Positions 6,081 to 58,936 of a stretch of DNA of 64,000 nucleotides are shown here, piece after piece. Numbering within the stretch: the first letter of the stretch is position 1; every line of letters starts with the position of its first letter. Below the pieces are notes generated by a model. The model saw nothing but the letters and a program-made list of their open reading frames with translations, searched no databases and was not told the DNA's origin. A program made the translations under genes and the position numbers. Source of the stretch: Mesorhizobium sp. (lineage in GTDB: Bacteria > Pseudomonadota > Alphaproteobacteria > Rhizobiales > Rhizobiaceae); assembly GCA_024710845.1 (NCBI GenBank), contig JANJTZ010000023.1, positions 12,248-76,247 on the forward strand. The letters run 5' to 3'.

Positions 6081-6389
6081 CTAGATCCGCTCTTCGTAGG
6101 GATGCCTCGTTCCCCCAACGGTCTTCGTCAGTTCGGAGAACGGAAGCACCTTCGTTCGGGAGTGTCCGTGGTTTGCCGTCCTGAGCAGGCGGATCGGGAA
6201 ACAGATCGCCTCCTTGTTCGACGGCGGCAATTCTTCAAAAAGCCCGCCCTCCGAAGTGAAGCTCGTTTCCGCCTTGCGCAGGGCCATATCGACTTCTTCG
6301 ATCGAAAGAAGCCCCTTCTCGACAAGGGTCCGGTTGATCGAGGCGACCGCCATCAGCAGTCCCTGGAGTTGGAGATTGGCGACGTTCAT
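6081..6389 (-). CDS. Hypothetical protein
   Basis: 102-aa ORF (MNVANLQLQGLLMAVASINRTLVEKGLLSIEEVDMALRKAE...). No recognised motif; called on ORF length and intergenic fit only. Confidence 0.4.
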   Translation of the reverse strand: MNVANLQLQGLLMAVASINRTLVEKGLLSIEEVDMALRKAETSFTSEGGLFEELPPSNKEAICFPIRLLRTANHGHSRTKVLPFSELTKTVGGTRHPYEERI

Positions 6390-6493
6390 ATCAGGCGACC
6401 TCCGTGCGACACGTTTCTGGGCCGGCCGGGCCGCCCACAGTGTAGCGTCTATGGTTCGATCTGACGAGAGCGAAGGCCGGCAGCAGCGAAGAG

Positions 6494-7486
6494 TCAGAGA
6501 AGGCCCGCTTCGATCGCCGCCTGGCGCAGGTTCTGGCGCGGGCGCGGCCCGACCTGCTGGATGACCAGACCGGCAGCCAGCGAGCCGAGCTTACCGCAGT
6601 CCTCCAGCGAGCGGCCCGTGGTATAGCCGAACAGGAAGCCGGCGGCGTAGAGGTCGCCGGCGCCAGTAGTGTCGACCAGTTCGCCGATCTCGATAGCGTC
6701 GACCTGGACGGTCTCGTCGCCGCGCACGATCACCGATCCGAGCTCCGATCGGGTGACCGCCGCGAGCCTGCAATCCTTGCGGATCGCGTCCAGCCCCGCC
6801 TCGAACGAGGCCGTCTGGTAGAGCGACTTCAGCTCGCTCTCATTGGCGAAGACGATGTCGACGGTGCCCGAGCGCATGAGGAACAAAAATTCGTCGCGAT
6901 AGCGGTCGACGCAGAAGGAATCCGACAGGGTCATCGAGACCTCCCGGCCGGCCGCGTGGGCATGTTTCGCGGTGAGGCGGATGGCGTCCTTGGCGCGCGG
7001 CGGATCCCAGAGGTAGCCCTCGAAATAGGTCACCTTCGCGCCGCGAGCCTTGTCTTCCTCGACGTCTTCAGGCCCCAGTTCCACGCAGGCGCCGAGATAG
7101 GTATTCATCGAACGCTCGCCGTCGGCGGTGACGAAGATCATGGACCGCGCGGTCGGCGGCGGCACCTCCAGGGGCTTGGTGTCGAAGGCGACGCCCTGGG
7201 CGCGGATGTCGTGGGTATAGATCCGCCCGAGCGCGTCCTGCGCGACCTTGCCGAAGAAGGCGGCCTTGCCGCCGAAGCTCGCGACGCCGGCGGCCGTATT
7301 GCCGGCGCTGCCACCAGAGGCTTCGATGGCGGGACCCATGCGGCTATAGAGCAGCTCGGCGCGGTCGGTGTCGATCAGGTTCATCGCGCCTTTGATGATG
7401 CCGTTGTCGACGAGAAAACTCTCCTCGCACCGCGCGATGATGTCCACGATCGCGTTGCCGATGCACAGCACGTCGAATTGGCTCAT
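6494..7486 (-). CDS. Adenosine kinase / PfkB-family carbohydrate kinase
   Basis: 330 aa; DVLCIGNAIVDII...GGSAGNTAAG...DTTGAGDLYAAGFLFG are PfkB signatures. Confidence 0.85.
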   Translation of the reverse strand: MSQFDVLCIGNAIVDIIARCEESFLVDNGIIKGAMNLIDTDRAELLYSRMGPAIEASGGSAGNTAAGVASFGGKAAFFGKVAQDALGRIYTHDIRAQGVAFDTKPLEVPPPTARSMIFVTADGERSMNTYLGACVELGPEDVEEDKARGAKVTYFEGYLWDPPRAKDAIRLTAKHAHAAGREVSMTLSDSFCVDRYRDEFLFLMRSGTVDIVFANESELKSLYQTASFEAGLDAIRKDCRLAAVTRSELGSVIVRGDETVQVDAIEIGELVDTTGAGDLYAAGFLFGYTTGRSLEDCGKLGSLAAGLVIQQVGPRPRQNLRQAAIEAGLL

Positions 7487-11887: not shown

Positions 11888-12286
11888 TCAATTGGAGAAG
11901 GTCTTGATGTAGGCGATCACGTCGAGGCGTTCCTTCTCGACCTTGAGGCCGGCGAAAGCCATCTTGTTGCCCGGAACCTTCTTCTTCGGGTCGGTGATGT
12001 ATTCGGCGATGGCTGCCTCGTCCCACACGAGTCCTGCTGCGCCGGCTTCCTTCATCGCCTTCGAATAGCCCGCGGCCTTCGCCGCGAATTCGGCTTCGGT
12101 GCCGGCGGTGCGGCCGATCACACCGTTGAGCGACGGGCCGAGCGGCTTCTTCGTCTCGCCGATGCCGTGGCAGACGGCACATTTGATGAAGACTTTCTTG
12201 CCGGCCTCGGCATCCTGGGCGGTCGCCTGACCGGCAAAGGCGAGAACGGCAAATGCGGCGGCTGCAACTCCGTAGGCTTTCAACAT
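11888..12286 (-). CDS. Class I c-type cytochrome (cytochrome c2/c550-like)
   Basis: Signal peptide MLKAYGVAAAAFAVLAFAGQATA, haem motif CAVCH, distal ...KMAFAGL... methionine region. Confidence 0.85.
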   Translation of the reverse strand: MLKAYGVAAAAFAVLAFAGQATAQDAEAGKKVFIKCAVCHGIGETKKPLGPSLNGVIGRTAGTEAEFAAKAAGYSKAMKEAGAAGLVWDEAAIAEYITDPKKKVPGNKMAFAGLKVEKERLDVIAYIKTFSN

Positions 12287-51971: not shown

Positions 51972-53192
51972 ATGTCTAGCTTGCTGAGAGCAGCCAAGCT
52001 CACATCGATCGCGCTCGGCGTCACACTGGCGTTTATGGAGACGGGCAGCGCCCAGATTGGCAACGGCGCTCAGGCCGTCACCGGCGGGCCGTCCGGAGTG
52101 GCTTCCGCATCGGGACCGGTGGGGCCTGGCCTGAGCCGCCTTCCCATGACGACGCCGAGCGTGGTTCCCTACCTCACGTCCGGCGGGACGCCGGCAGCCG
52201 CCGACAAAGCCGGCGCATCGAACGACACCGGCGTCGGCAGCACTGCCTATGGCCTCAACGCGTCATACAAATGGCCCTACACGATCGCCCGCGTTGCGGT
52301 GACGGGCGCGCCGGTCAACACGACGAACGGTGCCCTTGTTCCGGTCGCCAGCCGTCCGTATCGCCATTCGGGCAAGCTGTGGATGCGCTTCGGGGCAAGC
52401 ACCTGGTACGTCTGCACCGCCTCGCTCATCAAGAAGGGCGTGCTGATCACCGCCGCGCACTGCGTACACAATTACGGCCAGAAGGCTGCGGGCTGGGCCA
52501 ACGAGGTCCGCTGGTACCCCGCGAACTACACCTCCACCCCGACCGGCGGCCCTTGGGGCTATTACCAGGGCGTCAACTGGCGCATCCCGGGCGTTTACTA
52601 CAACGGTACCGACACCTGCCAGTCGGGCGCGAGCGGCATCGTCTGCAACAACGACCTGGCCACGGTCACGCTCGCACCCAAGGGCGGCGTCCATGCCGGC
52701 AACTTCCTCGGCGGCTGGTACGGCTATGGCTGGAACGGGTACAGCTACATCACGACGCCGGTGTTCGGTAACACCCACGTCGCGCAGATCACCCAGATCG
52801 GCTATCCGGTCGCCATCGACAACGGCTACCAGATGCTGCGCGGCGATTCTTACGGCAAATACATCGCTATGACAGGCGCCAACGGCAAGCTGTTGAAGAA
52901 CACGCAGCTGGGTTCGGCCATGACCGGCGGTTCGTCGGGTGGTCCGTGGCTGGTGAACTTCGGCACCGCGCCGGTCGTGACCGGCGGTGCCAGCCTTGGC
53001 AACGCCGCCGTCCGCAATGTCGTCGTCGGCGTGACCAGCTGGGGCTACACCAACGTCGGCAATAACGTCCAGGGTGCATCCTGGTTCGGCCAGAACGCCG
53101 AATTCCCGAGTGCTTCCTATGGTAGCTACGGCGCAGGCAATATCGGCTTTATGGTCCAGTACACCTGTACCGGTGCTCCGGCCTATTGCTGA
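51972..53192 (+). CDS. Secreted trypsin-like serine protease (peptidase S1 family)
   Basis: 406 aa with signal peptide ...LAFMETGSA|Q. Catalytic contexts are LITAAHCV (His), NNDLATVTL (Asp) and TGGSSGGPW (Ser). GGAGG Shine-Dalgarno. Confidence 0.8.
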   Translation: MSSLLRAAKLTSIALGVTLAFMETGSAQIGNGAQAVTGGPSGVASASGPVGPGLSRLPMTTPSVVPYLTSGGTPAAADKAGASNDTGVGSTAYGLNASYKWPYTIARVAVTGAPVNTTNGALVPVASRPYRHSGKLWMRFGASTWYVCTASLIKKGVLITAAHCVHNYGQKAAGWANEVRWYPANYTSTPTGGPWGYYQGVNWRIPGVYYNGTDTCQSGASGIVCNNDLATVTLAPKGGVHAGNFLGGWYGYGWNGYSYITTPVFGNTHVAQITQIGYPVAIDNGYQMLRGDSYGKYIAMTGANGKLLKNTQLGSAMTGGSSGGPWLVNFGTAPVVTGGASLGNAAVRNVVVGVTSWGYTNVGNNVQGASWFGQNAEFPSASYGSYGAGNIGFMVQYTCTGAPAYC

Positions 53193-53368: not shown

Positions 53369-54607
53369 ATGACCAACCGAATTCTTATCGCCGGCAGCGG
53401 CCAGGCCGGCTTCCAGACCGCGGCGAGCCTACGCCAGGACGGGTTCGAGGGCGAGATCGTCATCGTCGGCGAGGAGCCGGGACTTCCCTACCAGCGGCCG
53501 CCCTTGTCGAAGACCTATCTCAAGGAAGCGAACGCCGACCGGCTGCTCTTCCGCAATGCCGATTTCTTCGAGAAGAACAGGATCGACCTGGAGGACGGGC
53601 GGACCGTCACATCCATCGACCGCGCCGAACGGACCGTGACGATCTCGGATGGCCGGACGATCGGCTACGGCCATCTTGTGCTTGCCACCGGAACCCGCAA
53701 CCGGCGCCTGCCCCTGCCGGGCATCGATCTCGGCAACGTGCTCGGCCTCCGCACTTTGGCGGACGCGGAGGTCCTCCGCCAGAAACTCGCCTCGGCGTCG
53801 CGCCTGGTGGTGGTCGGCGGCGGCTTCATCGGCCTCGAAGTGGCTGCGACGGCCCGAGCGGCGGGCCTGCGCGTGACCGTTCTCGAGGCGACCGCGCGGC
53901 TGATGTCGCGCGTCGTCTCGCCACCGATCTCGGACTATTTCCTCTCCTTCCATTCGTCGAGCGGGGTCGACGTGCGGCTCAATTCGCTTGCCCGCGCGAT
54001 ACTCGACGACGGCGCCGGCAAGGCGGGCGGCGTCGAACTCGGCGACGGGGAGCGCGTGCCGGCCGATCTCGTGCTCGTCTCAGCCGGTGTGGTGCCCAAT
54101 GCCGAGCTCGCCGAGGCGGCGGGCCTCTACGTCCATGACGGCATCCGCGTCGACGATGTGCTCGCCACGGAAGATCCCGCCATCTCCGCCATCGGCGACT
54201 GCGCCTCCTTCCCCTTCGGCCAGGACGGTCTGCAGACCCGCCTCGAATCGGTCCAGAACGCGGTCGACCAGGCGAAATGCCTGTCGCGGAGGCTGGTCGG
54301 CCATCCCGAGCGCTACGACAAGCTGCCCTGGTTCTGGAGCGACCAGGGGCCGCACAAGCTTCAGATCGCCGGATTGACGGCCGGCGCCGACCATCACGAG
54401 ATCAGGGGTGGCCTGGACGAGGGCAAGCTCTCCGTCCATTGCTTTCGCCGCGGCGAACTGATCGGCGTGGAAACGGTCGACGTGCCCGGCGACCACATGG
54501 CCGCCCGCCGGCTGCTCAGCCAGCCGTCGCCAGTGACGCTGGAGGCGGTGCGGGCATCCGGATACGACCTCGCCGCCCTGATGAAGGCTGGCGCCGCGCG
54601 AGGCTGA
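53369..54607 (+). CDS. FAD/NAD(P)-dependent oxidoreductase of the ferredoxin/rubredoxin reductase family
   Basis: 412 aa; dinucleotide motifs IAGSGQAG and VVVGGGFIGLE, and the C-terminal reductase dimerisation domain. Confidence 0.85.
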   Translation: MTNRILIAGSGQAGFQTAASLRQDGFEGEIVIVGEEPGLPYQRPPLSKTYLKEANADRLLFRNADFFEKNRIDLEDGRTVTSIDRAERTVTISDGRTIGYGHLVLATGTRNRRLPLPGIDLGNVLGLRTLADAEVLRQKLASASRLVVVGGGFIGLEVAATARAAGLRVTVLEATARLMSRVVSPPISDYFLSFHSSSGVDVRLNSLARAILDDGAGKAGGVELGDGERVPADLVLVSAGVVPNAELAEAAGLYVHDGIRVDDVLATEDPAISAIGDCASFPFGQDGLQTRLESVQNAVDQAKCLSRRLVGHPERYDKLPWFWSDQGPHKLQIAGLTAGADHHEIRGGLDEGKLSVHCFRRGELIGVETVDVPGDHMAARRLLSQPSPVTLEAVRASGYDLAALMKAGAARG

Positions 54608-54609
54608 AC

Positions 54610-54831
54610 TCAGGACGTCTCGTCGTCCTTCCGGCTGAGCTGATGCCTGTCCGGATTGAAATCGATGAAGAAGCCGTGGAACGACATCATGGCCAGTGCG
54701 CCGACGACGCAGGCCCACAGGATCGCGCCGTTCCACAGTTCGAAGATCGTCCACCCGGCGGTGAAGCCAAAGGTGGCGATGCGGATCCACAGCGGCCGGA
54801 AGAACGGGTGGTCGGTGTCGAGCAGCCTCAT
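54610..54831 (-). CDS. Small two-TM membrane protein, hypothetical
   Basis: 73 aa starting MRLLDTDHPFFRPLWIRIATFGFTAGWTIFELWNGAILWACVVGALAMMSF. Its ATG overlaps the upstream stop (ATGA, 54828-54831). Confidence 0.55.
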   Translation of the reverse strand: MRLLDTDHPFFRPLWIRIATFGFTAGWTIFELWNGAILWACVVGALAMMSFHGFFIDFNPDRHQLSRKDDETS

Positions 54832-55460
54832 CGTGGCGCCTTGACGTAGGTCTCGATGCCGACCGCGAGATTGGCCGAGCTGCTGCGGCGCTCGCGCTCG
54901 ATATGAGTCGAGAAGAAGCGCCAGAACGAGCGCGCATAGTCCAGGAAGAACTCGTCTGCCACGGCGCGGTCGCACAGCTTTGTGTTCACGCAAGATGCAA
55001 GCCGGCTCAGGAAATAGACGATCCGGTCGAACTGGTCCTGGAAATCGGCGAGCGGCATCGTCCCGCCTTCATCGGTCATCGCCTTCGAGCCGATGCTCGC
55101 CATGATAATGTCCATCTGCTCCGGCGAGGTCTGCGGGGTGATCAGGCCGGCGGACTGCCGGTTCAGTTCGCCAAGCCGCCGCTTCAGCGCACTCTGGGCC
55201 TCCTGGTATTCGGGCTTCTCCCACAGTTCGACCAGCGCGAGCGTGCGCTCGACGCGCTTGTCCTGGCGCGATTGCAGGAACTGCACCGCCGAAAACACCG
55301 CGCCGACACACAGCAGCACGCGCAGCGTGAACCCGCTCCAGGCGAACAGGAACAGCCGCCAGTCGGTCGCCTTGAACGGATTAGGCTCGTCCTTGGGCTC
55401 CTGCGTGTTCGGCAGGGGTATCCCGGTACCCGTGTCGGGAAGCTTGGCCGGCCGCTTCAT
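54828..55460 (-). CDS. Single-pass membrane protein, hypothetical
   Basis: 210 aa starting MKRPAKLPDTG. Pro/Lys-rich N-tail, one TM helix (LFLFAWSGFTLRVLLCVGAVFSAV), then about 150 aa of helical domain. ATGA overlap at 55457-55460. Confidence 0.55.
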   Translation of the reverse strand: MKRPAKLPDTGTGIPLPNTQEPKDEPNPFKATDWRLFLFAWSGFTLRVLLCVGAVFSAVQFLQSRQDKRVERTLALVELWEKPEYQEAQSALKRRLGELNRQSAGLITPQTSPEQMDIIMASIGSKAMTDEGGTMPLADFQDQFDRIVYFLSRLASCVNTKLCDRAVADEFFLDYARSFWRFFSTHIERERRSSSANLAVGIETYVKAPR

Positions 55461-55828
55461 CGGCACGTGCCGAGATCGATGCGCGCCGAGGGATCGAGGT
55501 CGATCTCGTCGGACTGCAGCTTGTCCTTCAGGCATTCGACCTGACCGCGCGACAGCAGGAACTTCGTATCCGGCTCCTCGACCGCGGCCTTGGGCTCGGG
55601 CAGCGCCAGCACGATGCTGCGGCTCCTTTCGCAGCGGCTGAGGTCGACCGCTACCGTCTCACCGGCAACCGTTTCGGGATCGCTATATTTCTCGAGGAAG
55701 CAGGTCGCCAGATCCTCGTTCATGACCACCGAATCTGCGCAGATCACGCACTCCGCGGCCTGGAGAGACGAGGCGGCCACCAGCGTCAGCACCGCAATTG
55801 CGTATCCGAGTTGCCTGAGAGCGGTCAT
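55457..55828 (-). CDS. Small secreted cysteine-rich protein, hypothetical
   Basis: 123 aa with signal peptide MTALRQLGYAIAVLTLVAASSLQA|AE. The mature part has 6 Cys. No family recognised. Confidence 0.55.
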   Translation of the reverse strand: MTALRQLGYAIAVLTLVAASSLQAAECVICADSVVMNEDLATCFLEKYSDPETVAGETVAVDLSRCERSRSIVLALPEPKAAVEEPDTKFLLSRGQVECLKDKLQSDEIDLDPSARIDLGTCR

Positions 55829-55910
55829 GTCCGTTTTCGTCCTGATCGTTCCGGGACGCGGTCGCGCGCCCCTGGATTCATAAGCGCGGTTTTCCGCAAG
55901 AGGAAGCCGG

Positions 55911-58085
55911 CTATTTCGTGGCCGGGCTGGTCTCCATCGGAAAGACCAACACCGCGCCCTTCGAACCGCGCTTGTCCTGGAAACGCTTGACGTCGCGGGT
56001 CGCCGGCGCCTTGGCGATGTCGTCGAGCAGGCCGGCGAAGCCTTCCGGCGCCGCGGCGGAGCGCGTCGCCTGCCGCACGCCCTTCTGCGCCAGATAGCCG
56101 AGGTCGAGCGTCGATGACTGCTGCTCCGCCTCGGTCAGCACCGCAATCAGCCGCTCGTTGCCGAAGCTCCCCTCCGACACGGTGAACAGCCCGGTCTCCT
56201 CCAGTTCGTCGCGCTCGTGCAGGCGTATCGGCGCCTCCGCCGAACTGATCGTGTAGTCGCTGCCGACATAGAGCACGTTGAGGTCGACCGGCTTGCGGGA
56301 TTCGTTCTTCGCCGAAACGAAGATCGAATCGCCGGGATGTAGAACGGGCACGTTGCCCGCCTGGATAGGGGTCAGCTCTTCCTCGTCCGCCCGCTGCACC
56401 GAGAAGGTGACGCTCACGTCGCCGCGGCGGAAGTCGGACGCGCCGGCAAGCCGCGACAGGTTCATTGCCCGCGAAATCACCACGAGGTCGTCGGAGAGTT
56501 TGGCGCCGAGCTTCCCGGCATCCGCCGTGAACATCGACGGCGGACGGCGGCCCTTCTCCAGGCTGATCTCTCCCGAGGGCGGCAGCAGCCACAGGGCCGG
56601 CTCTTTCGGGGCGTCTGCCACAGCGCCGGGAACGTCGCTCTCGCGCATCACCGCGAAGCGGATGTCGGCCGAAGCACCAGGCTCGACCACGCGCAGCTTG
56701 AGCGGCGTCTTGCCGTCCGCCGCGATCGCCTCCAGCGCCGCATTGGCGCGCGCGACATCCTCGGCGAGGCCTTCCACGGGCGGTGCCTTGGCGACCACCA
56801 GTTCGAAATTGATCGCCATTTCGGCAATGCGGGCATAAGCGCCGTCCGGGATCTCTTCCATGCGCAGTGCCGATCGCCCGGCAAAGGCGGCCGGTAGCGC
56901 CTGGCTCGTCAGGCTGGTCGCCGAACGCACCTCGAGATAGCCGACCGCGTCCTCGATCGGGTCGAGCGGCGATTTGAGCACGGCAAGCTTGGTGCCCGGC
57001 TCGACGCGGTGCAGCATGCCGGCCGGCAGCGCCACGACCCCGTCCTTCACGGCCACCTTCCACTGCAGCACCGCATCGCCAGGCTCCATCCCGAACACCG
57101 GCGCGTCGAGGTCGCCCTCGAACAGCGGCGTCGGCTTGGTGCGGTTGAGGCCCGAATAGTGCTGCAGGATGCCCTGGCTGAGCTGGCGGTAGGTGACGTT
57201 CGGGTTTTCCGCCAGCTTCGACATCAGCGTGTAGGTAAAAAGGCCGAAGATCCTGCCGGCCGGGTCGGTCGCAGGTTGCGGGAACTCCGGCGTGGTCTCC
57301 ACCGTCTGGGCGGCGAAGAATGCGACCATGCCGCCGCGCTCCGCGGCGCCTGCGCCGTCATCATCCTCGGACAGGCCAAGCGCATTCTCGCGCTCCGCAT
57401 CGCCCCCAGTCCCGCGCGTGGCCTCTCCGCGGGCCGCCGCCATCATCTCCGGCGTGAAGCCGAGCGATTCAGGTGAGATCTTGCGCTCCTTCTCCTCGAC
57501 GCCCATCCCCACCGCGCGCGTCGCGGTGCCGGAATGGCAGGCGTCGAAGACGACCCAGACGAAAGCCCCCTTGTCGCGGATCGCATCGAGCGCCGCGCCG
57601 ATCTCGTCGTCCATGATGGCGTTGGGGACGGTCTTGGTCGCCGGGTCGATCTTGCTGATGTCGGCGGCGAGGAAAATCTCGTCCTTGCCGTCGATTTCGG
57701 TCGCCGGATCGGCCGCGGGCTGCTGCGAGCCGTGGCCGGAGAACTGGATGTAGACGAAATCGCCTTCTTCCGCCTTCGCCGTCAGGTCCGAAAGAGCCTC
57801 CAGGATGGAGCTGCGCGTCGGCGCCTCCGCGCCTTCGGTATTGCTCGCCAAAATGGTCACGTCGGAGGCGGCGAAGGGAGCGGTGGGATTGCTGACCAGA
57901 TAGTCCCGCACCAGGCCGGCGTCGTTCTTCGGCCCTTCCAGCCAGTCGCCCTTCGGCAAGTTGGGATATTCGGAAACACCGACGATCAGCGCCCGGTTGG
58001 TGCGCGCCTCAGCCTCCAGCGTCCCGCCGCACAATGCGGCGAGCGCCGCTGTCGCAAGCAGGCTGCCCGCGCGTCTGAGACCCAT
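55911..58085 (-). CDS. Secreted caspase-fold (peptidase C14) protein with a long uncharacterised C-terminal region
   Basis: 724 aa with signal peptide ...AALCGGTLEAEA. C14 dyad contexts are YIQFSGHG (H118) and VVFDACHSG (C183). The C-terminal stretch HPGDSIFVSAKNESRKPVDLNVLYVGSDYTI resembles the DUF4384 beta-sandwich, from memory rather than a search. Confidence 0.85.
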   Translation of the reverse strand: MGLRRAGSLLATAALAALCGGTLEAEARTNRALIVGVSEYPNLPKGDWLEGPKNDAGLVRDYLVSNPTAPFAASDVTILASNTEGAEAPTRSSILEALSDLTAKAEEGDFVYIQFSGHGSQQPAADPATEIDGKDEIFLAADISKIDPATKTVPNAIMDDEIGAALDAIRDKGAFVWVVFDACHSGTATRAVGMGVEEKERKISPESLGFTPEMMAAARGEATRGTGGDAERENALGLSEDDDGAGAAERGGMVAFFAAQTVETTPEFPQPATDPAGRIFGLFTYTLMSKLAENPNVTYRQLSQGILQHYSGLNRTKPTPLFEGDLDAPVFGMEPGDAVLQWKVAVKDGVVALPAGMLHRVEPGTKLAVLKSPLDPIEDAVGYLEVRSATSLTSQALPAAFAGRSALRMEEIPDGAYARIAEMAINFELVVAKAPPVEGLAEDVARANAALEAIAADGKTPLKLRVVEPGASADIRFAVMRESDVPGAVADAPKEPALWLLPPSGEISLEKGRRPPSMFTADAGKLGAKLSDDLVVISRAMNLSRLAGASDFRRGDVSVTFSVQRADEEELTPIQAGNVPVLHPGDSIFVSAKNESRKPVDLNVLYVGSDYTISSAEAPIRLHERDELEETGLFTVSEGSFGNERLIAVLTEAEQQSSTLDLGYLAQKGVRQATRSAAAPEGFAGLLDDIAKAPATRDVKRFQDKRGSKGAVLVFPMETSPATK

Positions 58086-58252
58086 GCTACTCTCCCAAGC
58101 CCGTGCGGCATATTATCCGCAAGGGAAGGTTCATGGCAGATTGAGGCCGATTTTTGAACCGGGACAGTCGTGGTCGAGGGCGAAATGGCCTTGACCCACA
58201 ACCGGCTGCGCGGGCAAACGTCTGCAACCACGAATACAGCGAGGAAAGACGC

Positions 58253-58936
58253 ATGAACCGGACCATCATTGCGCCGTCGGTTCTCTCGGCGGACTTCTCG
58301 AAACTCGGCGAAGAGGTCGAGACGATCGTCCGCGCCGGCGCCGACTGGATCCATCTCGACGTCATGGACGGCCACTTCGTGCCCAACATCACGTTTGGTC
58401 CGCAGATCATCAAGGCGATCCGTGGCCGCACCGACAAGATCTTCGACTGCCATTTGATGATTGCGCCGGCCGACCCCTATCTCGCCGCCTTCGCCGACGC
58501 CGGCTGCGACATCATCACGGTGCATGCGGAGGCCGGCCCGCATCTCGATCGCTCGCTGCAGGCGATCCGCAATCTCGGCAAGAAGGCCGGTGTGTCGCTC
58601 AACCCGTCGACGCCGGAAAGCGTCATCGAATACGTGCTGGACCGGCTCGACCTCGTACTCCTGATGACGGTCAACCCCGGCTTCGGCGGCCAGGCGTTCA
58701 TCCCCTCCGTCGTCGAGAAGGTGAAGCGCGTCAAGGCGATGATCGGCGCCCGCCCGATCGACATCGAGATTGACGGCGGGATCACCCCGGAGACCGCGCC
58801 GCTGGTCGCGGCTGCCGGCGCTAATGTGCTCGTCGCCGGCTCGGCCGTGTTCAAGGGCGGCTCCGAAGCCTCCTACCGCGCCAATATCGAGGCGATCCGC
58901 GCCGCCTCCGATGGAGCTATGAAGAGGGCCGCCTGA
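58253..58936 (+). CDS. rpe: Ribulose-phosphate 3-epimerase
   Basis: 227 aa starting [22 protein letters not shown]...[12 protein letters not shown]...[10 protein letters not shown]. Confidence 0.95.

Follow-up and report, generated by a model that had tools for sequence, protein, structure and literature searches.

A contig of Mesorhizobium sp. (assembly GCA_024710845.1, contig JANJTZ010000023.1) carries on its minus strand a gene for an exported caspase-type protease, followed by genes for a small secreted protein with six cysteines, a membrane protein of the DUF4760 family and a very small hydrophobic protein. This region occupies positions 54610 to 58085 of the 64,000-nucleotide (nt) stretch that was analyzed (contig positions 12,248 to 76,247), which we refer to as the window. 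As set out below, the best explanation for the window is that a conserved extracytoplasmic protease module, made up of three genes, is present there in reduced form. The genes for the protease, the six-Cys protein and the DUF4760 protein very probably form one functional unit. The fourth gene is a local, lineage-specific addition to the operon and is not part of the module.

The genes at the locus

An initial annotation, made from the sequence alone, had described four co-directional minus-strand open reading frames (ORFs) in this region, encoding 724, 123, 210 and 73 amino acids (aa). Both the positions and the sizes of these ORFs were reproduced, as were two ATGA stop/start overlaps that can be read directly on the coding strand. 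The closest named genome, that of M. australicum, encodes a caspase that is 91% identical, and its gene calls form the same series (724, 122, 210 and 73 aa). The fractional GC content of the module (0.662, versus 0.659 for the window) agrees with the native composition that had been ascribed to it.

55911 to 58085, minus strand: 724-aa caspase gene (ORF)
55457 to 55828, minus strand: 123-aa six-Cys gene (ORF)
54828 to 55460, minus strand: 210-aa DUF4760 gene, starting at the ATG that overlaps the upstream stop codon; the longest ORF encodes 235 aa
54610 to 54831, minus strand: 73-aa gene, starting at an internal ATG within a 127-aa ORF
55457 to 55460, minus strand: ATGA stop/start overlap of the 123-aa and 210-aa genes (coding-strand sequence)
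54828 to 54831, minus strand: ATGA overlap of the 210-aa and 73-aa genes (coding-strand sequence)

The 724-aa protein is an exported caspase-type protease

The 724-aa protein belongs to the Peptidase_C14 family, as indicated by a match to Pfam PF00656 of 49.7 bits (cutoff 21.4, E=4.9e-13), and the same model matches 57 of 62 homologues. Full-length homologues with 48 to 96% identity are present across Mesorhizobium and related genera. When a profile of 14 homologues was compared with PDB sequences, metacaspases were matched (E=6.5e-18). An AlphaFold model generated from 62 sequences, with a mean predicted local distance difference test score (pLDDT) of 77.9, exhibits the caspase-hemoglobinase fold, and its best Foldseek matches are Arabidopsis metacaspases 4 and 9, Geobacter GSU0716, yeast Yca1 and MALT1 (E 1.6e-15 to 1e-9).

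The caspase core that had been recognized from its FSGHG and FDACHSG sequence contexts is supported by these matches and by the invariance of H118 and C183 in the 62 sequences. Three further residues are invariant in the same set, namely D55 (in an NDA motif), D181 (two residues before the catalytic Cys) and R201. Acidic S1 residues and cleavage after basic residues are features of orthocaspases (PMC6426788). Judged from the sequence alignment, D55 and D181 correspond to the acidic residues that line the S1 pocket in metacaspases and orthocaspases with Arg/Lys specificity. Because the His/Cys dyad is intact and these S1 residues are acidic, the 724-aa protease is probably Arg/Lys-specific. The parts of the protein are encoded as follows.

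58005 to 58085, minus strand: signal peptide, residues 1 to 27, ending in A-E-A followed by the conserved Arg28 (putative cleavage site)
57096 to 58004, minus strand: caspase catalytic domain, p20 and p10-like part, residues 28 to 330
57732 to 57734, minus strand: His118 codon
57537 to 57539, minus strand: Cys183 codon
57480 to 57485, minus strand: Arg201-Lys202 codons, in the p20/p10 linker
55914 to 57095, minus strand: conserved C-terminal region of ~390 aa, residues 331 to 724 (from the homologue alignment and the model)

The signal peptide noted initially is well supported, given that all 120 listed homologues have a hydrophobic N terminus with an AxA end located just before a conserved R-T-N/Y motif. 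Its assignment to the Sec route, however, could not be maintained. A twin-arginine motif, mostly TRRxLL, is present in 63 of the 120 homologues, and the Pfam TAT_signal model matches 4 of 62. The window protease itself has RR at residues 4 and 5 (L-R-R-A-G-S) but lacks the hydrophobic residues normally found after this pair, and in its closest relatives the pair is KR.

Pfam coverage of the catalytic domain extends over residues 30 to 292. The structural alignment to AtMC4 and AtMC9 encompasses 340 to 380 columns, and this length of alignment to type II metacaspases suggests that a p10-like part is present. The linker between p20 and the p10-like part is variable and modeled with low confidence, except that Arg201 is invariant and Lys202 nearly so (ERK motif). 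These two residues constitute a candidate autoprocessing site.

The C-terminal region is conserved over its whole length among homologues and is predicted to include a beta domain (~341–432), an alpha/beta segment (441–501), a long helix (523–547) and a beta-sandwich (557–652). It matches no Pfam family, and Foldseek results for the full 724-aa model are dominated by the caspase domain. The resemblance to DUF4384 (PF14326) suggested earlier for this region is not borne out, as neither the window protein nor the 62 homologues match that family at E<=1. The EACC1-associated caspase family (NCBIfam NF047832) was likewise rejected, since the score is 32.8 bits versus a cutoff of 140.

The 123-aa protein has an invariably basic residue in the loop between two repeats

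The signal peptide and the six cysteines (C27, C30, C43, C66, C99 and C122) previously recognized in the 123-aa protein are conserved in its homologues, with ~97% conservation of the cysteines across a family alignment of 144 representatives. A profile search of 1.84 billion representative proteins recovered 157 clusters at E<=1e-3, nearly all of whose members are 120 to 145 aa long and have a common signal peptide and cysteine pattern. Sequence-profile searches of Pfam, NCBIfam, PHROGs, PADLOC and PDB yielded no match to the 123-aa protein.

In an AlphaFold model of this protein (pLDDT 73.5), a beta-alpha-beta unit is followed by a long, low-confidence loop (residues 63 to 88) and a second beta-alpha-beta unit, which gives a pseudo-dimeric fold. 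The best Foldseek matches, at E ~2, are PII/NikR ferredoxin-like folds, wherein the resemblance is only topological. The two halves of the protein are homologous (hhalign probability 93%, E=2.6e-7) and so form an internal repeat, each half of which carries one Cys in its helix and another just past its last strand. In addition, a CxxC sequence is present at the mature N terminus.

The loop between the repeats carries a residue that we consider the candidate P1 position for the protease:

55619 to 55621, minus strand: Arg70 codon, in the inter-repeat loop

Of the 144 representatives, 136 have Arg and 8 have Lys at position 70, with zero gaps, and no other non-cysteine position in the family is equally conserved. 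The residue that follows is Gly, Ser or Ala in 131 of 144 sequences and is Ser71 in the window copy. The alignment columns flanking position 70 are gap-rich, and Arg70 itself resides on the low-pLDDT loop. The earlier conjecture that this protein might be an inhibitor, substrate or pro-factor of the protease thus gains a concrete basis in the form of a family-invariant basic residue on a flexible loop.

One 1948-aa repetitive protein (P0288) also scored well against the six-Cys profile (E=4e-19). Its similarity is spread over nine short stretches, the protein lacks the cysteine pattern, and the match looks like a compositional or repeat artefact.

The 210-aa protein belongs to a caspase-linked subgroup of DUF4760

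The 210-aa protein had been described as a single-pass membrane protein, and hydropathy analysis does reveal one hydrophobic segment. The protein can additionally be assigned to Pfam DUF4760 (PF15956), which it matches with 29.1 bits (cutoff 25). Precomputed assignments to the same family exist for nearly all of 106 homologues, and the relative encoded by the Rhizobium plasmid pRL11 scores 33.7 bits.

55275 to 55331, minus strand: transmembrane (TM) segment, residues 44 to 62
54972 to 54992, minus strand: Cys157-x5-Cys163 (Cx5C)

C157 and C163 show no variation among 36 orthologues, nor in the Rhizobium and Cereibacter relatives, which are only 21 to 31% identical. The caspase-linked members of DUF4760 make up a subgroup with an invariant Cx5C and an obligatory six-Cys partner. 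PDB sequence-profile searches with the 210-aa family gave no match, and no relatives of the DUF4760 partner were found in viral contigs. Just before the TM segment, an NPFxxxDWR motif (residues ~27–43, window positions 55332–55382) is conserved in orthologues from Phyllobacteriaceae and absent from the Rhizobium and Cereibacter relatives.

Some DUF4760 homologues have short N-terminal tails, and these are mostly positively charged. Because of these charges and the invariant cysteine pair, an N-in orientation is favored, and the DUF4760 domain probably faces the periplasm. On its presumed cytoplasmic side, the 210-aa protein has only a short, variable tail that is free of domains.

The six-Cys and DUF4760 genes are inherited and translated as a pair

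A scan of genomes yielded 80 loci encoding the 730-aa caspase, which come from Mesorhizobium, Aquamicrobium, Aquibium, Tianweitania, Oryzicola, Nitratireductor and related metagenome-assembled genomes. In 70 to 71 of these loci, the small gene comes next to the caspase gene and the DUF4760 gene next to the small one, in the order seen in the window. The two genes form a pair that is strictly co-inherited, being gained or lost jointly, and translationally coupled: on complete contigs neither member occurs singly, and in 70 of 70 genome loci the start codon of the DUF4760 gene overlaps the stop codon of the small gene (64 as ATGA and 6 as TGATG).

The pair is absent as a unit from 9 of the 80 loci. 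Four of these nine are Aquamicrobium-type loci, wherein the caspase gene is kept and directly abuts a gene for a WD40-caspase protein. Since the 730-aa caspase can occur without the pair, the dependence between protease and pair runs one way only. Conservation of the gene neighborhood had been put forward as a check on the functional link, and its outcome is divided accordingly: the pair was never seen away from a protease, but the protease is seen without the pair.

A metagenome scan with the DUF4760 alignment produced 63 loci, with the small gene located directly upstream in 54. The remaining loci are mostly on short or truncated contigs. The caspase gene is present in 24 of the 25 loci that have at least 2.6 kb of upstream DNA. 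The exception (locus L101, positions 6266–7192) contains a six-Cys-like ORF (AGCLVCDDVVEPDEDEATCFL...), after which no more than part of a DUF4760 gene remains. It has no caspase gene within 7 kb upstream and is probably a decayed copy.

The three genes recur together outside the syntenic locus

A tblastn search of plasmids with the 210-aa protein identified two lineages at 25 to 28% identity, one from the Rhizobium leguminosarum group (of which the copy on pRL11 of strain 3841, locus RL_RS31285-31295, was examined) and one on a Cereibacter sphaeroides plasmid. The corresponding search with the 123-aa protein gave no match, although plasmid homologues exist. This null result reflects a failure of sensitivity, because the plasmid homologues were found through the neighboring gene and confirmed by profile. 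Eight more contexts, in Pannonibacter and on metagenome contigs, were found through distant members of the six-Cys family. In the following list, each context is given with its protease and then its gene order.

R. johnstonii 3841 pRL11: 1543 aa, with PG_binding_1/2, PAN and C-terminal C14 domains; caspase, 127-aa six-Cys, 196-aa DUF4760 (4-nt overlap)
Cereibacter sphaeroides plasmid: 482 aa, signal peptide and C14; six-Cys, DUF4760-like, caspase (reversed order)
L152/L153: pRL11-type C14, C-terminal part seen; caspase, six-Cys, DUF4760-like
L154: 778 aa, window-type protease; caspase, opposite-strand small gene, pair, with other neighbors
L155: 1295 aa, PG_binding_1 and CHAT; pair, protease, in an integrase-flanked island
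L156/L157 (~40–42% GC): pRL11-type C14, C-terminal part seen; caspase, six-Cys, DUF4760-like
L158, Pannonibacter sp. Q-1: 1069-aa TPR-CHAT protein with signal peptide; protease divergent from pair, flanked by insertion sequences (IS)
L159: 1324 aa, PAN and C14; caspase, pair
L160: 1419 aa, C14; caspase, pair
L161: 1543 aa, PG_binding and C14; caspase, pair

In 10 of 10 contexts, a DUF4760-like gene (profile E 1e-16 to 1e-31) comes after the six-Cys gene, and the two lie beside a gene for a clan-CD protease. A signal peptide is present on every context protease whose N terminus is on the contig. All C14 partners keep the GHG and Asp-x-Cys sequences and, where the region is present, the upstream Asp of xDA. 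The GC content of the contexts ranges from 40 to 67%. The pair was never found without an adjacent gene for an exported C14 (caspase) or CHAT protease. The window has each feature of this triad, namely a six-Cys protein with an [RK]-[GSA] loop, a translationally coupled Cx5C DUF4760 protein and an adjacent exported C14 protease. In our weighting, these contexts outside synteny are the decisive evidence for linkage.

Two of the contexts contain an additional small secreted ORF beside the protease gene (L154, 7366–7731, minus strand, 121 aa; L158, 7494–7853, minus strand, 119 aa), and the one from Pannonibacter is Cys-rich. The triad island of L155 (192–9572) begins with a phage-type integrase gene and directly adjoins a Septu-like candidate defense pair, PDC-M01A/B (E=6e-132 and 2e-57).

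A tentative mechanism: cleavage of a membrane-held target

The gene linkage, the export signals, the active-site residues, the invariant loop residue and the internal repeat were all observed, and the model proposed here starts from them. Its most specific clue is the pairing, read from sequence, of a universally basic loop residue with proteases whose S1 pockets look to be of the Arg/Lys type. The model predicts complex formation, a membrane topology, cleavage at Arg70 and a downstream output. The six-Cys and DUF4760 proteins would be made in a 1:1 ratio through stop/start-coupled translation and would assemble into a complex at the inner membrane, on its periplasmic side. The protease would dock on the inter-repeat loop such that Arg70 enters the S1 pocket, and it would cut after this residue (Arg70-Ser71). 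The cut would separate the two repeat halves and thereby alter the state of the DUF4760 membrane partner.

According to this model, the pair would serve as the dedicated, membrane-held target of the protease, and the variable protease domains (peptidoglycan (PG)-binding, PAN, TPR or beta-sandwich) would supply the input. The finding that the pair is constant while the noncatalytic domains of the proteases vary fits a constant target or regulator that is served by proteases with variable inputs. We prefer this mechanism to the alternatives considered below, but taken as a whole it is tentative.

Several observations weigh against it. The caspase without the pair in 9 of 80 loci must have other substrates or roles. 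The region containing polA, the Fur gene and the caspase gene is syntenic across most Phyllobacteriaceae loci, and these loci alone therefore cannot separate function from shared ancestry. The equivalent of Arg70 is also present where the partner is a CHAT protease, so that Arg70 could serve in another way, for example by binding the DUF4760 protein. A disulfide between the repeat halves, if present, would keep the halves joined after cleavage. Finally, charge counts (positive-inside rule) are ambiguous with regard to the topology of the 210-aa protein.

Alternative explanations

One alternative is that the six-Cys protein is a substrate-mimic inhibitor, whose Arg-Gly/Ser sequence would occupy S1/S1′ without productive cleavage. 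The DUF4760 protein would then anchor the inhibitor at the membrane, and the pair would act as a latency or immunity module that keeps the exported protease silent near the cell's own envelope. Such logic would resemble that of co-operonic inhibitors of cysteine proteases such as the staphostatins. In staphopain/staphostatin operons, the inhibitor binds the protease in a substrate-like manner, and Gly at P1′ blocks hydrolysis; staphostatins are cytoplasmic beta-barrels. This arrangement would account for the small residue at P1′ in the six-Cys family and agrees with the location of the invariant basic and small residues on a loop between disulfide-stabilized units. It also agrees with the finding that the small gene adjoins the protease gene in every context, and with the export of the protease into the producer's own periplasm. 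However, a soluble inhibitor has no obvious need for a strictly coupled membrane partner, the protease persists without the pair in the nine loci noted above, and PDB profile and Foldseek searches detected no fold or sequence likeness to known inhibitors. We regard the inhibitor explanation as possible, if somewhat unlikely.

A second alternative assigns the pair a role in docking or maturation, wherein the two proteins would tether, fold or activate the protease at the membrane, for example through the CxxC and Cx5C cysteines or through a shared metal or disulfide. Arg70 would then be structural or would contact the DUF4760 protein, outside the active site. Consistent with this, the small protein has a CxxC and the membrane protein an invariant Cx5C, and the Arg is conserved with C14 and CHAT partners alike. 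Many of the orthologous proteases carry a twin-arginine motif and, as Tat substrates, would be exported already folded. Yet the Arg resides in an indel-rich, low-confidence loop outside the folded core. Furthermore, the proteases differ greatly outside the catalytic domain, so that only this domain could provide a docking surface shared by all of them. We consider such a role unlikely.

The triad might instead be an extracytoplasmic conflict or programmed-death switch. The protease would sense an envelope or phage cue through its variable PG-binding, PAN, TPR or beta-sandwich domains and cut at the loop arginine of the six-Cys protein, which would act as a cap, and this would free the DUF4760 protein as an effector that, for example, permeabilizes the membrane or blocks phage entry. 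This would be the periplasmic counterpart of gasdermin or Craspase logic. Bacterial gasdermins that are paired with caspase-like proteases follow the same principle of a sensor protease and a single-site target. Hints in favor are the occurrence of the triad on plasmids and on IS- or integrase-flanked islands, including the instance beside a Septu-like PDC-M01 pair. Against these stand the stable chromosomal location next to polA in Mesorhizobium and the fact that no viral or PADLOC link was found, which leave a conflict switch improbable.

It is highly improbable that all four ORFs, including the 73-aa gene, form one obligatory system. The ATGA overlap does join the 210-aa and 73-aa genes, and even in those members of the window's clade that are less closely related, the 73-aa ORF remains intact, at 43 to 46% identity. 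Nonetheless, the gene is present in only 8 of 84 loci, all from this clade (43–100% identity), and it is absent from all 10 contexts outside the chromosomal locus. In most Mesorhizobium its position is occupied by WD40-caspase and Memo/PGA_cap genes. This distribution rules out the 73-aa gene as a part of the module. Thus, the system envisaged in the initial annotation stands for the protease, six-Cys and DUF4760 genes (coupling in 70 of 70 loci and 10 further contexts) and falls for the fourth gene.

Lastly, a complete lack of functional link, with adjacency being synteny inherited near polA within one bacterial family, would agree with the syntenic polA, Fur and caspase cluster of most Phyllobacteriaceae loci but is extremely unlikely, because the triad recurs on plasmids, in IS- or integrase-flanked islands and with other neighbors and gene orders, and because translational coupling is conserved.

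Relationship to known systems

Alphaproteobacteria encode thousands of caspase homologues (PMC6426788, PMC3501461). Surveys of bacterial caspase homologues have recorded N-terminal hydrophobic segments that are possible signal peptides, cell-wall-binding domains and many caspase operons without an assigned function (PMC3501461, PMC6426788). For the exported homologues, no physiological substrate or partner has been established (PMC6426788, PMC3501461). The window protease shares with metacaspases and orthocaspases (AtMC4, AtMC9, Yca1, TbMCA2 and GSU0716) the fold, the GHG and D-x-C-H-S-G dyad and the acidic S1, as well as a DGxDE motif after the catalytic His and a basic residue in the p20/p10 linker. 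Unlike these metacaspases and orthocaspases, it is exported, with a Tat-type signal on many orthologues, and it has a conserved C-terminal region of ~390 aa and two dedicated partner genes that are absent from the surveys.

Among periplasmic clan-CD proteases, the closest precedent in terms of mechanism is DdvA, a TPR-CHAT anti-sigma factor (PMC11506125). As in the module, a single-pass membrane protein is combined with a clan-CD protease domain in the periplasm, and proteolysis is the proposed switch. DdvA consists of a single polypeptide, whose anti-sigma domain is cytoplasmic and binds zinc, and it has an extracytoplasmic function sigma factor as its partner. In the module, by contrast, the protease is separate and soluble, and the membrane protein has no conserved cytoplasmic domain. 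Regulated intramembrane proteolysis of the RseA/DdvA type was rejected as a model because the 210-aa protein has no anti-sigma domain and the neighborhood has no sigma gene. In the RseA/RseB/DegS system, too, a protease that faces the periplasm is combined with a single-pass membrane protein and a small, co-translated periplasmic partner, and this system provides an analogy only. Neither this system nor staphostatin has any sequence or fold relation to the module proteins, and the module has no anti-sigma domain.

The type III-E protease Craspase with its target Csx30 (bioRxiv 10.1101/2022.08.17.504292) resembles the mechanism proposed for the module in that a clan-CD protease with a variable sensor is encoded together with a target cut at a single site. 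Gasdermin and Craspase systems act in the cytoplasm, however, and their targets are unrelated to the module proteins. The neighborhood contains no gasdermin, CRISPR or nucleotide-signaling gene. With PADLOC 2.0, only a generic caspase model matches the protease (E=3.4e-19) and the other three proteins have no match; PHROGs gave nothing significant for the three small proteins.

Searches of open-access papers and bioRxiv preprints turned up no description of the triad and, for DUF4760, a family of no known function, a single unrelated mention. The module is a caspase-type protease operon with a previously unrecognized and widely distributed partner pair. An anonymous Mesorhizobium operon thereby becomes a defined, recurrent three-gene module, which includes a small-protein family that is new, lacks a Pfam model and comprises ~157 clusters at 50% identity. 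DUF4760 gains its first consistent genomic association, and exported bacterial caspases gain a specific candidate substrate or regulator. At the level of residues, the prediction is that Arg70, followed by Gly, Ser or Ala on the inter-repeat loop, is the P1 site of the protease. If the pair is indeed a protease-gated membrane module, then caspase-type switches would extend to the bacterial periplasm.

The 73-aa gene and variation downstream of the module

The 73-aa protein had been called a two-TM mini-protein. One of the two segments (~36–56) is strongly hydrophobic, and the other (~15–33) is weaker. The protein matches no family in Pfam, NCBIfam, PADLOC or PHROGs.

At the same position, most Mesorhizobium encode a protein of ~1010 aa with a signal peptide, WD40 repeats and a C-terminal caspase domain. 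A gene for a Memo/PGA_cap fusion (564 aa) is next and overlaps the WD40-caspase gene by 4 nt. A divergent gene for a MORN-repeat protein follows, and after it, in most Mesorhizobium, come trypsin-like protease genes. This extended operon is seen in M. loti CJ3sym (L081, 13412–20090), in L033 and L084, and in ~50 other loci. The window lacks the WD40-caspase, Memo/PGA_cap and MORN genes, and only a trypsin-like gene (51972–53192) is present.

Intergenic signals and neighboring genes

Two noncoding features lie next to the caspase gene:

58112 to 58139, minus strand: promoter-like site 27 nt upstream of the start codon of the caspase gene, with CTGCCA and GATAAT separated by 16 nt
55829 to 55910, minus strand: 82-nt gap separating the caspase and 123-aa genes, with a GC-rich hairpin lacking a U-tract

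The promoter-like site is the sole such match within 54300–58500 and is a match to the consensus only. A separate promoter or terminator in the gap, with uncorrelated expression, had been named as an observation that would argue against the linked unit. No terminator-like site was found on the coding strand of the gap, and terminator-like sites overall occur at chance level. The fold z-score of the gap hairpin (-1.5) is not significant. The hairpin is kept in four related loci (L001, L002, L003 and L083), but its sequence varies among these close relatives. In the same loci and the window, the sequence TAGCCGGCTTC.TCTTG located 3′ of the stop codon is invariant.

The module is flanked by housekeeping genes, which encode ribulose-phosphate epimerase, an AhpC/TSA protein, a HAD phosphatase, a Fur-family regulator and polA. 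A further flanking gene, for a ferredoxin-reductase-type flavoprotein, is convergent with the module. The stop codons of this gene (plus strand, ending at 54607) and of the 73-aa gene (minus strand) are 2 nt apart (54605–54612), and there is therefore no room for a terminator between them. Located 1.4 kb beyond the module, the trypsin-like gene of the window (51972–53192, plus strand) encodes a secreted protease of 406 aa (Pfam Trypsin, E=8e-5). Genes of the trypsin-like kind are likewise found beside the caspase cluster in M. loti and at other loci, which suggests a larger neighborhood of envelope proteases.

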